Below are positions 2,266-8,560 of a stretch of DNA of 56,871 nt, one piece after another. The position numbers and the translations under genes were made by a program. Position 1 is the stretch's first letter; every line of letters starts with the position of its first letter. Source of the stretch: an archaeon. Its GTDB lineage: Archaea > Iainarchaeota > Iainarchaeia > Iainarchaeales > Iainarchaeaceae. The notes below the pieces were generated by a model. That model saw only the letters and a program-made list of their open reading frames with translations. It was not told the DNA's origin and searched no databases. The stretch covers positions 1 through 56,871 of the forward strand of contig JANLGZ010000070.1 in the NCBI GenBank assembly GCA_024653905.1, in the 5' to 3' direction.

Positions 2266-3501
2266 CTAAACACCCAATTCCGCATTGCCTCTTGATAAGA
2301 GATAAAATGCAACATATTTTGGCAGAGAAACCTCTTCTTTTGTGAAAGGTCCAAACCAGTTTCCTTTGATATAAAACTTTGGGGTGGTTACATTCATAAG
2401 TCTTACCTCTTCACCAGAAAACACAACTGTTTCTTTCAAAGCATCAAAACTAGGAAGTTCTTCTCTTGATAATTCCATTGCGTTCATCCCTGTTGAACCA
2501 TGAATAGTATTAGGCACCCTAATTATTTTGTTTATATCAATTGAGGTCTGCCTGTCAACCCCAAGCATTTTTTCTTCAGCAATATACTTTAAGACTGATT
2601 CCCAAAAACGATCTGCTTTAAAACCAGGTAAAGATAATAAAAAACCACGTTCCATGCCACTCATAATGTTCTGTTTTTCTTTTAATAATTTTTTAACCGT
2701 GCCTTCAGTAACATTGTGTTTATTCCTTGAAGCCATTGCAGAAATTTTAGAAACATCCCCTTCATCAAGAAGATTTTCAATTCCATCTAATAATTTTTTT
2801 GACCAGCCCATCGCCACATTTTTTTTCGGGCAATGAAAAACTTTCTTTGAAGAATAAACAAAACCAAGAGATTTCAAATCTAAATTTGTTGCAGTAATAT
2901 AATCTAATAATTCAAGCCTTGCTGCTTTTGATAATGACTGAATATTGTCACCCCTTATATGAGTGTGAAATCCTTTTGAACCTGAAAAATTAATTGAAAT
3001 TCCATCATTAAAAGAAAAATCTTCTTCAAGAATTTTCAAAAGTGTTTGTGTTTGTTTTTTTGTTTCACCAACACATTCAGGACAAACCCATTCCTCAACC
3101 TTAACCCCAAAACCGCATTCAGGACATCTTTCAAGGTTACCTTTTCCTTTTGCATCACATGATTTGCACACCCAAGAATCATGCGAAAGTTTGCATTCTG
3201 TTTCAATATCATCAGCATCAAATTCATAAATGATATCAGCACCTAAAAGGATTTTTTTCTCCATTGGCCGGCGATCAGGAAACTCATAATGTGCATTTGA
3301 ATATGAAATGTAAAAAGGAGTTCTTTCTCTTAGAAAAAAATTGAGCTGTTTGTTGTCTGAAAAAGTCAAGTGCCTTGAGGAAATTTTTTTTCCAAATTCC
3401 CCGAATCCAAATTCTCGAGAGCGGATATCAGGAACGGTGGTTACCTCTACAGAGTTATAATAATCCTTTAGAATACTGCGTAAGTAAGTTTCAGCCCCCA
3501 T
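2266..3501 (-). CDS. priS: DNA primase small (catalytic) subunit PriS
   Basis: 411 aa. Catalytic acidic motif IIYEFDADD, SGSKGFHTHI and RVPNTIHGSTGM motifs. Zn-binding insert CKSC...CPEC...CPEC. Confidence 0.9.
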   Translation of the reverse strand: MGAETYLRSILKDYYNSVEVTTVPDIRSREFGFGEFGKKISSRHLTFSDNKQLNFFLRERTPFYISYSNAHYEFPDRRPMEKKILLGADIIYEFDADDIETECKLSHDSWVCKSCDAKGKGNLERCPECGFGVKVEEWVCPECVGETKKQTQTLLKILEEDFSFNDGISINFSGSKGFHTHIRGDNIQSLSKAARLELLDYITATNLDLKSLGFVYSSKKVFHCPKKNVAMGWSKKLLDGIENLLDEGDVSKISAMASRNKHNVTEGTVKKLLKEKQNIMSGMERGFLLSLPGFKADRFWESVLKYIAEEKMLGVDRQTSIDINKIIRVPNTIHGSTGMNAMELSREELPSFDALKETVVFSGEEVRLMNVTTPKFYIKGNWFGPFTKEEVSLPKYVAFYLLSRGNAELGV

Positions 3502-3555
3502 TAAAGAGATGGGCTGAAAACAATTAATAAAGATATAAGAAAAAGAAAAGAGGTA

Positions 3556-3581
3556 AAGGAATCACACAAAAACAATTCCTT
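3556..3581 (-). terminator. hairpin plus T-run downstream of the small basic-protein gene
   Basis: AAGGAAT (3556-3562) pairs with ATTCCTT (3575-3581). On the minus strand it is followed by a T-rich run (tacctcttttctttttc). Confidence 0.3.
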
Positions 3582-3597
3582 TATCTATCAAAAAAAT

Positions 3598-3777
3598 TTA
3601 CCTCTTTTTTCTCTTTGCTGGAGCTTTCTTAGCTACAGTTTTCTTTGCTGCTTTTCTTTTAGCAGGTTTTTTCTTTGCTGGAGCTTTCTTAGCTACAGTT
3701 TTCTTTGCTGCTTTTCTTTTAGCAGGTTTTCTTTTTGCTACAGTTTTCTTTGCTGCTGTTTTTTTTCTTGCTGCCAT
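3598..3777 (-). CDS. 59-aa Lys/Ala-rich basic protein (histone H1 tail-like / nucleoid-associated candidate)
   Basis: Absent from the ORF track (under 60 aa). ATG at 3777-3775 is preceded by GGAGGT 8 nt upstream; TAA at 3600-3598. Translation: MAARKKTAAKKTVAKRKPAKRKAAKKTVAKKAPAKKKPAKRKAAKKTVAKKAPAKRKKR. The 180 nt are in frame. Confidence 0.6.
   Translation of the reverse strand: MAARKKTAAKKTVAKRKPAKRKAAKKTVAKKAPAKKKPAKRKAAKKTVAKKAPAKRKKR
3611..3730. repeat. 60-bp tandem direct repeat, 2 copies, inside the basic-protein CDS
   Basis: 3612-3670 is identical to 3672-3730, with one mismatch at 3611/3671. Each unit encodes a 20-aa KA-rich repeat. A degenerate partial third unit follows at 3731-3760. 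Confidence 0.9.
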
Positions 3778-3943
3778 AATCCTTACCTCCTTTTTTTGTA
3801 ATTAAATAATTTTTACAGAAATTTTTTGCAAAATTCTGTCTTAAATTTGTTTATTAAATACTTTTTAACATATAAAAAAGTATTGTTGCACAAAAAATTC
3901 AATGTTTTTGACAAAAAAAAATGCAATTCACAAAAAAAATATA

Positions 3944-4028
3944 AAAATAATTTTTAATTTTGTGAAAGTGTGAAAATAATTTTTAATTTTGTGAAAAAAA
4001 ACTTCCAGGAATAATTTTTGTGAGAAAA
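3944..4028. repeat. AT-rich direct repeats AAAATAATTTTTAATTTTGTGAAA (x2 exact, plus one shortened copy)
   Basis: Exact 24-mers at 3944-3967 and 3973-3996 (period 29). A shortened copy aataatttttgtgagaaaa lies at about 4010-4028. They sit in a roughly 250-bp intergenic region between priL and the basic-protein gene. Confidence 0.8.
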
Positions 4029-5072
4029 TTATGCATTTGTTTCAGCACTATTAAAATTTTCTTCAGAGTTTATTTTAGAATTGGTTTTTGAAATTTCTTT
4101 TGAATAGAAAATTATCGGGTGTGAAACTGGACAGTTTGAAACGCACAAATTATAAGACCTCATTTTATCACAACTCGGAGAACTGTAGCCTTTGCCTTTA
4201 ACCCCTGCAATTCGCTCAACCTGATATCTTGTTGTACTTTCGTTAAAATTAGGCGCGTTTCTAAAAACATCAGTTATTTTGCCTGCTTCCATCCCAACAG
4301 AAGCAAGGAAAGTTGCAATTGCAAATCTTCCTGAATGATTCACATTAACCCCTTGAACCAAATCTGAATAAAGTTTTGACATACAAGGCGGAAAAGATTC
4401 AGGAGACACTTTTCCAAAATCTGTTTTGGAAAATTTCTTTCTTACACTTTGCGAAAATTCTGTTTCGATGCTTTCAGCAGCAGATTTGAAAAAGTTAGGA
4501 ATTCCTTTGAGCGGAACTGGAAGAGAATCTCTTATTCCCTGACCAACAACGATTGAAATTAATCTTGCAAAATCGTTCCTTGTTAGAAACACTTTACCCA
4601 TCTTTAATTCACGATTAACAAGTTTCATGAACGTTTCCTCTAAATTAGGCCTTAGATAATCTATAAGATTGAGCTCCACAAAAAAATCCTGCGAATCAGA
4701 AAGAGAAAACCTCAAATTGAGTTCTGATGCAAGATCAATTAAAACACCGTCTTTTTCCTCTTCCAAGTTTCGAAAAATCGAATTTGAAAACAATTCAGAA
4801 AATTTTCTGTAAAGTTCATACCTGCCTATAATTGAAACCAGTATTTTTGATGCAGGAAATGCAAGTATTTCATTTTTCAAAAGCTCAGGCGAAGTTTGTA
4901 TATTAGGCCTGTATTCCTGATCTGTAAAAGCAGCGTGCACCATTGCTTTGGCTCTGTTCAGAACTGATTCAGGAACATTTTCAAGAGTAAAATCTGATTG
5001 CGCAATAACATTTTTTGCAGCAACAGAAAAAGGGTATTTTTGAGAAAACCTTAATTCTGGAATAGAAAACAT
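4029..5072 (-). CDS. priL: DNA primase large subunit PriL
   Basis: 347 aa. C-terminal Fe-S cluster cysteines (PPCM ... SPSCDKMRSYNLCVSNCP). Conserved HSGRFAIATFL segment. Confidence 0.85.
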   Translation of the reverse strand: MFSIPELRFSQKYPFSVAAKNVIAQSDFTLENVPESVLNRAKAMVHAAFTDQEYRPNIQTSPELLKNEILAFPASKILVSIIGRYELYRKFSELFSNSIFRNLEEEKDGVLIDLASELNLRFSLSDSQDFFVELNLIDYLRPNLEETFMKLVNRELKMGKVFLTRNDFARLISIVVGQGIRDSLPVPLKGIPNFFKSAAESIETEFSQSVRKKFSKTDFGKVSPESFPPCMSKLYSDLVQGVNVNHSGRFAIATFLASVGMEAGKITDVFRNAPNFNESTTRYQVERIAGVKGKGYSSPSCDKMRSYNLCVSNCPVSHPIIFYSKEISKTNSKINSEENFNSAETNA

Positions 5073-5076
5073 TCAA

Positions 5077-5799
5077 TCACAACAACATGTGAGCTAAGTA
5101 AAATTTAATCTCACTTTTCCCGATGCTGAAACTTACTTTCATTGCTGAATCGCTTTTAAGCTCCAGTTTTATTATTGATTCGGGATCTGCTTCCTTAACA
5201 ATGTTCTGTAAATAAGTCAGAGAATATTTTGATGTTACTTTTGCAGATGATTTTACTTTTACTTTTTTTGCATGTGCAGAATCAGCCCTTACCTTTCCTG
5301 CGGTTCCTTGCGATTCCAAAAAAAACTTTCCATTATCTACTTTAAGCACAATACTTGAACTGAATAAGGATGTATCTTTCAGGGCTTCTTTCAAAATTTT
5401 TGCGTTGATTTCAACAACCGCATCATATTCTGATTCAGGAAGTTTCAAATCTTCCTCAGAAACATCAATCAAAGGAAGAGTAAACGAACGATCTAATTCT
5501 CCTTTGAAATCTATTTTGAATTCTGAATCATTCAAATCAATAATTATTTTATCAGTCTGCATTGCCCTTGAAATAATTTTATTTAACTCTGTAAGGTTTA
5601 TACCCACAAAAGAAGGTTCTATTGAAAACGAATCAAAAACACTCTTGTCAATTGAATAATCAACCAAAACTATCTGACTTGGATCAATGGCCCTTAAATG
5701 AATCCCTTTATCATTAAACCTGAAATTACCCTCAGGAATAAACGAAGCAATAGCCTCTATACCAGATTTTAGAAAATCAACCTTGTTTAATTCAATCAT
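5077..5799 (-). CDS. pcn: DNA polymerase sliding clamp PCNA (paralog 1)
   Basis: 240 aa. FNDKGIHLRAIDPSQIVLVDYSI and VGINLTELNKIISRA follow the PCNA pattern. The two-domain length is typical. Confidence 0.9.
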   Translation of the reverse strand: MIELNKVDFLKSGIEAIASFIPEGNFRFNDKGIHLRAIDPSQIVLVDYSIDKSVFDSFSIEPSFVGINLTELNKIISRAMQTDKIIIDLNDSEFKIDFKGELDRSFTLPLIDVSEEDLKLPESEYDAVVEINAKILKEALKDTSLFSSSIVLKVDNGKFFLESQGTAGKVRADSAHAKKVKVKSSAKVTSKYSLTYLQNIVKEADPESIIKLELKSDSAMKVSFSIGKSEIKFYLAHMLL

Positions 5800-6851: not shown

Positions 6852-7598
6852 CTACTCAGATTCAATTCTTGGAGCAAGGAAATAAACTAACTTTCCTTCT
6901 CCAACTGAATAAGAAATTTCTACTGGTGCATTTGTTTTGAGTTTTACTGTTACCTCAGTATCAGCTGATGCTGCTTTGGTTACGCTAACTAAATAATCTA
7001 AAGGAAACATTGCTCTTGTTTCATCACTTGCTTTTAATGAAATAACTGCCTCATCCTTATTACTATAAATGTTTTCTAAATTTCCTTTGCTTGAATTAGC
7101 TCTAACAATAAAAGAATCATTTTCAACAAGCAATAAAATATGAGTAGAAATTAAATTAGCGTCTTTAAAAGAATCCACCAAAGCATCTGCCCTGATTTTT
7201 ATTTCTGCATCAAAATCTATTTTTGGCAGAGGCAAATCAGCTATTGAAATATCCAAAAGCGGAATTGAAAAACTTCTTTTTGATTTTCCCAAAAAAACAA
7301 CAGTTAATTTTGACTTATCTCCTGAAATTGAAAGTTCTAAAGAATCAGTGCTTTTAGCTCTTGACATAACCTGATTCAAATAATTAAGGTCAACACCAAT
7401 ACTTGTTGGTTCTTTTACTTCAAGTTTTTTGAAAGCTTTTTTAGGTAACTGAAAATCAACAAGAGAAATCTGAGAAGGATCAGTAGCTTTCAAGCTTAAC
7501 CCATTTTCATCAATCTTGAACTCTGCCTCATCCACAAGCACAGCTATCCCATCAACAAATTTCTTGAAAACCGCTGCATTATCGAATATCAATTCCAT
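6852..7598 (-). CDS. pcn: DNA polymerase sliding clamp PCNA (paralog 2)
   Basis: The ORF track starts at a GTG (7643). The first ATG, at 7598, gives MELIFDNAAVFKKFVDGIAVLVDEAEFKIDENGLSLKATDPSQISLVDF..., a typical PCNA N-terminus. VGVDLNYLNQVMSRA is also present. It is clearly diverged from paralog 1. Confidence 0.85.
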   Translation of the reverse strand: MELIFDNAAVFKKFVDGIAVLVDEAEFKIDENGLSLKATDPSQISLVDFQLPKKAFKKLEVKEPTSIGVDLNYLNQVMSRAKSTDSLELSISGDKSKLTVVFLGKSKRSFSIPLLDISIADLPLPKIDFDAEIKIRADALVDSFKDANLISTHILLLVENDSFIVRANSSKGNLENIYSNKDEAVISLKASDETRAMFPLDYLVSVTKAASADTEVTVKLKTNAPVEISYSVGEGKLVYFLAPRIESE

Positions 7599-7639
7599 TT
7601 TATCACTTAGTAATTGCCTTGGCAAAGGGTTAAAAGCAT

Positions 7640-8560
7640 TCACACAAAGCCAGCAAGCATAGCTCTTTCAGAGGGTTCAAATGTGGTTATGCACTTATCA
7701 AGCGAAACATTACCTCTTTGGGATAAGCCTATACAGTTGAAAACCCATGGAAGGTCATCAAAAATAATGAGTTTTATATGCCCTATTAAAGGCAGGTGGA
7801 ATAAGTATTTTCCTCTGAGGTTTTCCACAGGAATAGGAGCAAGTACAATACAATCATTCCCACTAGAACTACAATCCTGATCCATCCGGTTATTGTTATC
7901 TCCCATGGTTAAAAGAAATTGCCCATCAGGGGCATTGATTTTCAAAACAGCCCTGTGAATTATATCTTGTTTTCTTAATGGAGAAAAGTAAACCACTATT
8001 GGTCCTTTTTCATCAAACTCAAATTCATCAGAACCAATTTTTATTGAAGCGTCTCTTTTAACCCCTGAACTATTAACGCGCTTTCCAATAACAGCATATT
8101 CACGGAGCAGTTTATCTTTTATTGGAAAATCCACATTTGCTTCAGTCAATCGCATTGAACCAGCACCGGTAAGAATTACTATATCTCCTCTGTAAAGAAT
8201 CGGCTCCATGGACCCGGAAAAAACAATTACTAATGGAGCGTTGGTGCCTAGCAAAAATGACAAAACAAAATTGTAAAGAACAAATGCAAATATGAAAGCA
8301 GAAACAAGGTACACTGAAAGAGTAATTGCTTCTTCTTTTTCAAAAAAGAAAAGATAAATGTAAACTATCCCAAGAAGACCTACAATGGTAATTGAGAAAC
8401 CAAATACAATTGAAATCAATAAAGAAAGAATCAGGTAACTTGAAATGAAAACCCCCCATTGGAGTTTCTGATCAAGTGCGTTTATTTTTGGAAGCAGAAA
8501 AAAATCAATATAAGTAAATGGATCTAACCATTTTAGTTTTTCTTTTATTTTCTTAAACAT
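7640..8560 (-). CDS. signal peptidase I, archaeal/Sec11 type (S26B), with long N-terminal membrane extension
   Basis: VFSGSMEPILYRGDIVIL (catalytic Ser box), IIHRAV and TMGDNN boxes. About 100 aa of extra transmembrane helices lie at the N-terminus. Confidence 0.8.
   Translation of the reverse strand: MFKKIKEKLKWLDPFTYIDFFLLPKINALDQKLQWGVFISSYLILSLLISIVFGFSITIVGLLGIVYIYLFFFEKEEAITLSVYLVSAFIFAFVLYNFVLSFLLGTNAPLVIVFSGSMEPILYRGDIVILTGAGSMRLTEANVDFPIKDKLLREYAVIGKRVNSSGVKRDASIKIGSDEFEFDEKGPIVVYFSPLRKQDIIHRAVLKINAPDGQFLLTMGDNNNRMDQDCSSSGNDCIVLAPIPVENLRGKYLFHLPLIGHIKLIIFDDLPWVFNCIGLSQRGNVSLDKCITTFEPSERAMLAGFV

Follow-up and report, generated by a model that had tools for sequence, protein, structure and literature searches.

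Within the window analysed here, a 56,871-nt contig (C50) of a 1.15-Mb archaeal genome that is 92% complete, genes for PCNA, the two primase subunits, GINS51 and aIF2-alpha lie on the minus strand (Table), and the spacer between priL and priS holds a micro-ORF for a Lys/Ala-rich polycationic protein. The host belongs to the Iainarchaeota, a DPANN lineage, and its PriL has relatives in Candidatus Iainarchaeum and 'Diapherotrites' MAGs. Two features of the neighbourhood are recorded in their own right. When read at its longest, from a TTG codon, the GINS51 frame shares 89 nt with the 3' end of priS; the true GINS51 start is probably an internal codon, with GINS51 and priS likely being tightly coupled and not overlapping. 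A second PCNA-like ORF lies at 6852-7643 (minus strand), about 1 kb from the PCNA gene of the Table, which is the one of the two that was checked with Pfam, and an RpiB-like gene and a membrane ORF sit between them.

Table. The micro-gene, its predicted signals and its neighbours in the window
Feature	Position	Strand	Basis and remarks
PCNA	5077-5799	minus	Pfam
PriL	4029-5072	minus	Pfam
TATA-like box TTTTTTATAT, predicted promoter of micro-gene	3870-3879	minus	about 95 nt before ATG; read from sequence
5'UTR hairpin CAGAAUUUU..AAAUUUCUG, upstream of Shine-Dalgarno	3815-3839	minus	folding; 48-nt segment z = -2.74
Shine-Dalgarno GGAGGT of micro-gene	3785-3790	minus	7 nt before ATG; read from sequence
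Coding sequence of Lys/Ala-rich polycationic protein	3598-3777	minus	59 codons + TAA; frame-preserving indels relative to L012; syntenic K-rich ORFs in relatives
Tandem array within coding sequence	3607-3766	minus	60-nt period (20 aa) x 2.7, on a 15-nt (5-aa) sub-period; Tandem Repeats Finder
Terminator-like hairpin AAAGGAAU..AUUCCUUU, then T-rich run	3538-3582	minus	16 nt after stop; centroid stem 10 pairs
Element TTTATTAAYTGTTTTC before priS	3516-3532	minus	same position in L001-L012
PriS	2266-3501	minus	Pfam
GINS51	1710-2354	minus	Pfam
aIF2-alpha	743-1516	minus	Pfam

The ATG, the TAA, the GGAGGT site and the 59-residue translation that an earlier note on this DNA had claimed were reproduced exactly, on the minus strand, which that note had left unstated; its estimate that roughly half of the residues are Lys or Arg is a counted 51%, and the two repeat units that it had called essentially identical (3612-3670 and 3672-3730) agree at 59/59 nt. 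The product, of 6.5 kDa and with a pI of ~12, contains 24 K, 17 A, 6 R, 4 T, 4 P and 3 V, with its 30 K+R being accompanied by no acidic residue. Its open frame has 67 codons and is closed by a stop 8 codons upstream of the ATG, so that a longer version is impossible. According to Tandem Repeats Finder the array shows 90% matches throughout its length, and we propose that the perfect 60-nt duplication is fresh and that slippage lengthens and shortens the coding repeat. A full GGAGG precedes 18 of the 867 long ORFs of the genome, and hence the Shine-Dalgarno sequence of the micro-ORF is no background feature; in the 1.15 Mb the micro-ORF is also the sole Shine-Dalgarno-preceded small ORF of real length in which K/R make up at least 45%.

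Signals of a separate transcription unit flank the ORF. On its upstream side TTTTTATAT, ~95 nt before the ATG, is conserved in the window and in two genus-level relatives, L012 and L182, and more distant members of the family have a near-consensus BRE/TATA, GCAAAACTTTAAATA or a close variant of it, ~75 nt before the ATG. On its downstream side the hairpin itself occupies 3555-3582, with the T-rich run after it; it is conserved in L012 with a G-U change, and in relatives T-runs, often with a hairpin, come after the micro-ORF stop. The adjoining priS has no Shine-Dalgarno sequence. A conserved TTTATTAAYTGTTTTC 15-30 nt before its ATG, kept whether or not a micro-gene occupies the spacer, resembles a promoter from which a leaderless priS mRNA would start. 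With a TATA box and terminator of its own, and a separate element for priS, the micro-gene would be monocistronic and thus not strictly part of a primase operon; we infer that it is independently transcribed from its own predicted promoter.

Between the putative promoter and the Shine-Dalgarno sequence lies the 5'UTR hairpin, formed by a U-run and an A-run. Across 13 loci its mean z is -1.76, with seven at or below -2.1, and among relatives it is found at 5187-5219 of L005, 3795-3821 of L008, 4452-4487 of L009 and before 576 of L193. The hairpin occurs in most relatives and its centre differs between them (CCACA/UGUG, CCC/GGG, CGCG, GC), which indicates that pairing has been kept and sequence has not; it may serve as an RNA element or, from its place shortly after the transcription start, as a palindromic operator. 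An Rfam scan of 3300-4200 gave chance-level matches only (E 0.14 and 0.58) and so no known RNA there. The AT-rich spacer farther upstream of the micro-gene, at 3940-4028, has two near-identical copies of TTCACAAAATTAAAAATTATTTT and a shortened third; L012, although of the same genus, does not conserve these repeats, which makes it unlikely that the micro-gene depends on them.

How general is this arrangement? The earlier note had advised a search of related genomes for such ORFs, and the comparison of priL-priS spacers from 13 genome contigs and 13 metagenome contigs, 17 of them distinct after duplicate removal, found a Shine-Dalgarno-preceded, Lys-rich micro-ORF in 13 of the 17 from family-level relatives; four family members are without one in that spacer. 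GGAGG stands 6-9 nt before the ATG in all 10 of the ORF-carrying genome-contig relatives and in metagenome copies also, the encoded N-terminus is MA(A/K/M/V)(K/R)K.. and the C-terminus is a K/R run. The lengths are 10, 11, 12, 12, 15, 27, 28, 29, 59, 64 and 72 aa, together with at least 43 and at least 58 aa for two ORFs at contig edges; Candidatus Iainarchaeum andersonii (L005) has a 12-residue version, MAAKKKKKAKRK. In three genus-level sequences, with PriL 87-88% identical, the ORF has 59, 72 and at least 58 aa and the repeats are laid out differently; one of these alleles, L182, comes from a metagenome contig. The window differs from L012 by indels of 3, 27 and 15 nt, every one of them in frame. 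Recent expansion of the repeat and variation in its number, both suspected earlier, are borne out by these alleles, and what would have spoken against coding function, namely the repeat lying in other frames in relatives or being disrupted by stops, was not seen, with the indels preserving the frame and the pooled ORFs considered next being free of stops.

Could the ORF even so be no gene at all, its one open frame being an accident of a purine-rich, non-coding tandem repeat? A-rich DNA of low complexity is a common component of AT-rich genomes, and GGAGGT+ATG pairs, of which 30 were counted in the host genome, would be expected ~16 times by chance on a base-composition estimate. Exact look-up of 10 family members in a collection of 15 billion proteins found none, from which it follows that no gene caller recorded them and that the gene has no independent support from that quarter; a word-indexed protein search with the micro-ORF product returned nothing at E<=1e-3. 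Against chance stands the recurrence of Shine-Dalgarno sequence, ATG and K frame in relatives spanning 24% to 53% GC, the in-frame nature of all indels, the predicted promoter and terminator that bracket the ORF, and the roughly ten-fold rarity of a reversed control pattern in the order-wide survey described below. Composition argues in the same direction. In 24 complete ORFs, pooled to 878 residues (K 441, A 161, V 103, R 59, T 55, P 43), there is not one D, E, N, L, F, W, Y or C and not one stop, a statistic that is somewhat inflated by the K/R threshold by which the ORFs were chosen and in which kin and internal repeats are non-independent. A single mutation can turn a Lys codon into one for Glu, Asn, Gln or Ile, or into a stop, and the absence of Glu, Asn and the others therefore points to selection on the protein. 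At the level of codons, AAG accounts for 33% of the Lys codons of the micro-gene and for 17% genome-wide (P ~0.04, weak), and there is no avoidance of long A-runs, the longest run of 8 being not unusual (P = 0.38). We thus regard a chance frame as a highly improbable explanation. As judged by sequence comparison the micro-ORF is a real, conserved and repeat-plastic gene outside known families, and the earlier view that an unannotated genuine gene is present gains from the syntenic, Shine-Dalgarno-preceded ORFs and from their in-frame indels.

Micro-ORFs of this kind extend through the order Iainarchaeales. A DNA pattern consisting of a Shine-Dalgarno sequence, ATGGY and then three purine-rich K/R-type codons (in protein terms MA..KKK) matches 103 of the 151 genomes of the order, with the reversed pattern, used as control, matching about a dozen. 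Composition-corrected HMMER with the 59-aa query, which under-detects relative to the DNA pattern, found just 6 other genomes among 81 of the order. When 30 loci were fetched from the order, 16 held small polybasic ORFs, of 10-88 aa. We define here an Iainarchaeales polylysine micro-ORF group by a Shine-Dalgarno sequence at 6-9 nt, a start MA(A/V/K)K/R-K, at least 44% K+R, no acidic residues, an end in a K/R run and a terminator of its own, all of which the window ORF displays. The context is constant within families and different between them. In family f2 the micro-ORF stands between a Dph5-like gene and a DUF63 gene, both on the opposite strand, and in family f3 between the genes for aEF-2 and a Dxr-like protein. 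The description 'embedded in the primase cluster', between priS and priL-PCNA, is accordingly apt for the window, where Pfam identifies the neighbours, and for family-level relatives; it does not carry over to the other families of the order, where the gene contexts are different.

This distribution bears on the idea that the product is a replisome or primase accessory, a basic peptide helping PriS/PriL or PCNA to hold the template. Such an activity would account for the position of the micro-ORF between priL and priS, and the order priL, ORF, priS, within the PCNA-priL-priS-GINS cluster, is indeed that of the 13 ORF-bearing spacers out of 17. It is an improbable reading, however, given that outside the family the micro-ORF was beside priS or priL at 0 of the 30 fetched loci (by tblastn), that the spacer ORF is missing from four members within the family, and that the micro-gene has its own predicted promoter and terminator while priS has its own upstream element. 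Moreover, one genome assigned to the same genus (G141) has no micro-ORF at priL-priS and has one elsewhere, a MAAKKKKKKK ORF with GGAGGT between tRNA-intron endonuclease and RimK-like genes. In locus L178 (G151:C1:19221-22255), likewise from a genome of that genus, the 10-residue ORF (1515-1547 of the reversed locus) is 63 nt upstream of the RimK-like ATP-grasp gene. RimK enzymes append poly-Glu tails to a ribosomal protein; the juxtaposition is a single observation and maybe a coincidence.

The variety of contexts also weighs on a regulatory interpretation, namely a leader ORF whose stall-prone poly-Lys translation controls read-through of the hairpin and T-run into priS. The layout within the family is attenuator-like, with promoter, short ORF, hairpin plus T-run and gene in succession. 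Yet an attenuator always has a same-strand regulated gene downstream, whereas in f2 the micro-ORF lies between two opposite-strand genes and has nothing downstream to regulate, and elsewhere the downstream genes vary between families. Within the primase cluster TTTATTAAYTGTTTTC precedes priS with or without the micro-ORF, versions of 59-88 codons with mixed A/V/T/P are unlike what a stalling leader needs, and the selection is on amino-acid composition. All of this leaves a leader function with very little to recommend it.

Outside the order, scanning of species genomes for a Shine-Dalgarno sequence followed by MA(x)KKKKK yielded, among the matches listed, all-basic ORFs of 8-28 aa in Woese-, Pace- and Aenigmatarchaeota and, also among the matches listed, ORFs of 8-28 aa in CPR bacteria (Microgenomates, Saccharimonadales, Patescibacteria). 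Pure Met-Ala-Lys(n) ORFs of 8-10 codons with GGAGG are represented among the matches listed by L063, L080, L082, L125 and L133 (Microgenomates, Saccharimonadales, Woesearchaeota, Aenigmatarchaeota, Pacearchaeota). Versions of 21-171 aa occur among the matches listed from Planctomycetota and Bdellovibrionia, and some of these, read by eye, are fused to a SWIB-like C-terminus. With sequence of such low complexity, homology between the micro-ORFs of different families or groups is undemonstrable, and those of different families could have arisen more than once.

What might such a product do? Its charge density, its freedom from acidic and bulky residues, its strong expression signals and its free length fit a disordered, non-specific binder of polyanions. 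We consider it probable that the product is a stand-alone disordered polycation which binds nucleic acids by charge and whose length is tuned by repeat slippage. It would bind DNA and/or RNA via charge alone, with no fold, and so act as a macromolecular counter-ion or condensing agent in the manner of the H1 C-terminal tail or chlamydial Hc2, which are established examples of non-specific polycations. If charge density is all that matters, selection would keep composition and would not keep sequence or length. The composition so kept would be one in which Ala, Val, Thr and Pro separate the Lys/Arg residues and from which acidic, amide and bulky hydrophobic residues are absent, and slippage of the coding repeat would then yield the versions of 10-88 residues across the order. 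Nucleic-acid binding and high expression we infer, and the target likewise. DNA or chromatin is rated the likeliest, because of the compositional match to H1 and Hc2, the single-gene unit that is typical of nucleoid proteins and, in the family, the replication-gene neighbourhood; rRNA or ribosome binding is placed second. A chromatin role may be conjectured on these grounds, with the evidence fitting DNA, RNA or ribosome binding alike.

Relevant to this is the complement of chromatin proteins in the host, about which the earlier note had wondered. There is one histone-fold gene (C69:3923-4108, 61 bits) and one Alba gene (C35:17684-17872, 70 bits), with a sub-threshold match only for HU, and since histone and Alba are already there the need for yet another chromatin protein is not obvious. 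A SET domain was looked for in the 92%-complete genome and not found. That a polycation might be substituting for missing polyamine synthesis was also considered and is unsupported, with an AdoMet decarboxylase gene (speD, 82.5 bits), a borderline aminopropyltransferase match (speE, 22.2 vs 22.9 bits) and deoxyhypusine synthase being present; pyruvoyl arginine decarboxylase was not found in the host genome.

The ribosome provides the other setting to consider. The product could be a very small protein that is bound to the ribosome or to rRNA and occupies an rRNA groove, as a lineage-specific counterpart of eL41, bS22 or bTHX. Like tiny ribosomal proteins it is very small and very basic and has strong translation signals, its versions of 10-15 residues are within the size range of ribosomal micro-proteins, and the micro-ORF comes after aEF-2 in f3 and beside a Dph5-like gene in f2. 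A length range of about nine-fold (10-88 aa), with repeat change inside a single genus, is nevertheless hard to fit to a fixed binding pocket, no examined locus is within a ribosomal-protein operon, and the micro-ORF has no Pfam eL41 match while a better eL41-like ORF is available at C57:313-381, so that we think a ribosomal protein unlikely. The specific proposal that the micro-ORF is eL41 (PF05162) is rejected, as a whole-genome search at E<=1 matched C57:313-381 only and not the micro-ORF. The C57 ORF (minus strand; locus L195) is small and ends ...KARQRWKWKKKKMRRKKRKKRYLRQRAKA (stop) / RWKWKKKKMRRKKRKKRYLRQRAKA; as the sole match to the eL41 model its E of 0.77 is not significant for so short a model, and it looks like the real eL41 of the genome, probably unannotated.

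To return to the charge-driven polycation, what gives it wider interest is that a stand-alone gene for an H1-tail-like polycation is conserved throughout an entire DPANN order, side by side with histones in the same genomes. Were it expressed as strongly as its signals suggest, it would supply positive charge, so far overlooked, to the nucleoid or ribosome of ultra-small cells. One may go further and envisage ultra-small archaea, and in parallel bacteria, making an encoded, length-tunable polylysine counter-ion that gene callers miss and that here acts on histone chromatin as an analogue of the linker-histone tail, with dose or charge being adjusted over short evolutionary time by slippage; to us this more sweeping version is conceivable and rather doubtful. 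On that version, and given abundance in vivo, DPANN chromatin would contain a major component that has gone unrecognised, and archaea would offer a precedent for compaction of the H1-tail type in the presence of histones. The length plasticity, from 10 to 88 aa, would be a clean natural case of selection on composition and not on sequence. Standard gene calling overlooks such ORFs and trypsin-based proteomics would do so too, as trypsin, which cleaves behind each Lys and Arg, reduces such proteins to di- and tri-peptides. The micro-gene should be useful to those working on archaeal chromatin and on small proteins, with its proposed mechanism being generic.

How does the product compare with known basic proteins? 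The resemblance to H1 tails and to proteins of the Hc2/AlgP type that had been remarked on earlier stands as regards composition, in that the only family matches are to Hc2 and H1-like proteins, and falls as regards membership, all scores being below cut-off. For Hc2/HctB these are 24.5 bits vs a cut-off of 40 (Pfam PF07382) and 23 vs 135 (NCBIfam NF038052), and for the Burkholderia-type histone H1-like protein (NF038053) 20.5 vs 80. Pfam at E<=0.1 returned HC2 only and thus no linker-histone globular domain (Linker_histone). Scores so far under the curated cut-offs make the likeness compositional and not one of family membership. A PDB sequence search matched only K/A-rich low-complexity segments of actinobacterial SigA/HrdB and is uninformative. 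The AF2 model has a pTM of 0.13 and no secondary structure, and this lack of a predicted fold, with the half-basic composition and high pI, agrees with the disordered Lys/Ala/Pro-rich tail of H1.

Hc2, the best-scoring family, works by charge-driven condensation of DNA and RNA. It and the window protein are both Lys/Ala-rich, have variable short tandem repeats and are without a globular domain; Hc2, however, is chlamydial and ~170-200 aa long, whereas the window protein is archaeal, has 59 aa (relatives going down to 10) and has no known developmental-cycle context. With eL41, bS22 and bTHX the shortest relatives (10-30 aa) have size, charge and strong translation signals in common, but the length and repeat number of the micro-ORF are not conserved. 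The H1 C-terminal domain offers the likeness of a disordered K/A/P/T-rich polycation encoded by indel-prone, low-complexity DNA, with a histone-fold protein in the same genome; the difference is that the window protein stands alone, is not a tail and lacks a winged-helix domain. According to Henneman et al. 2018 (PMC6136690), archaea have yielded no linker histone that is homologous to H1, a statement that the micro-ORF leaves unchanged because its product is at most an analogue of H1. Polyanionic granules and the nucleoid are both sites with which AlgP is associated (PMC9239181). The Pseudomonas AlgP/PhaF and the NF038053 proteins share AKP-type lysine repeats and the description 'histone H1-like' with the window protein, and differ in being longer and, in some cases, in having a structured N-terminal part. 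Lys-rich H1-like proteins are thus familiar from bacteria (Hc2, AlgP and others). What is new here, on the strength of the genome sequences, is an archaeal, stand-alone and extremely length-plastic type, unannotated yet widespread in its order.
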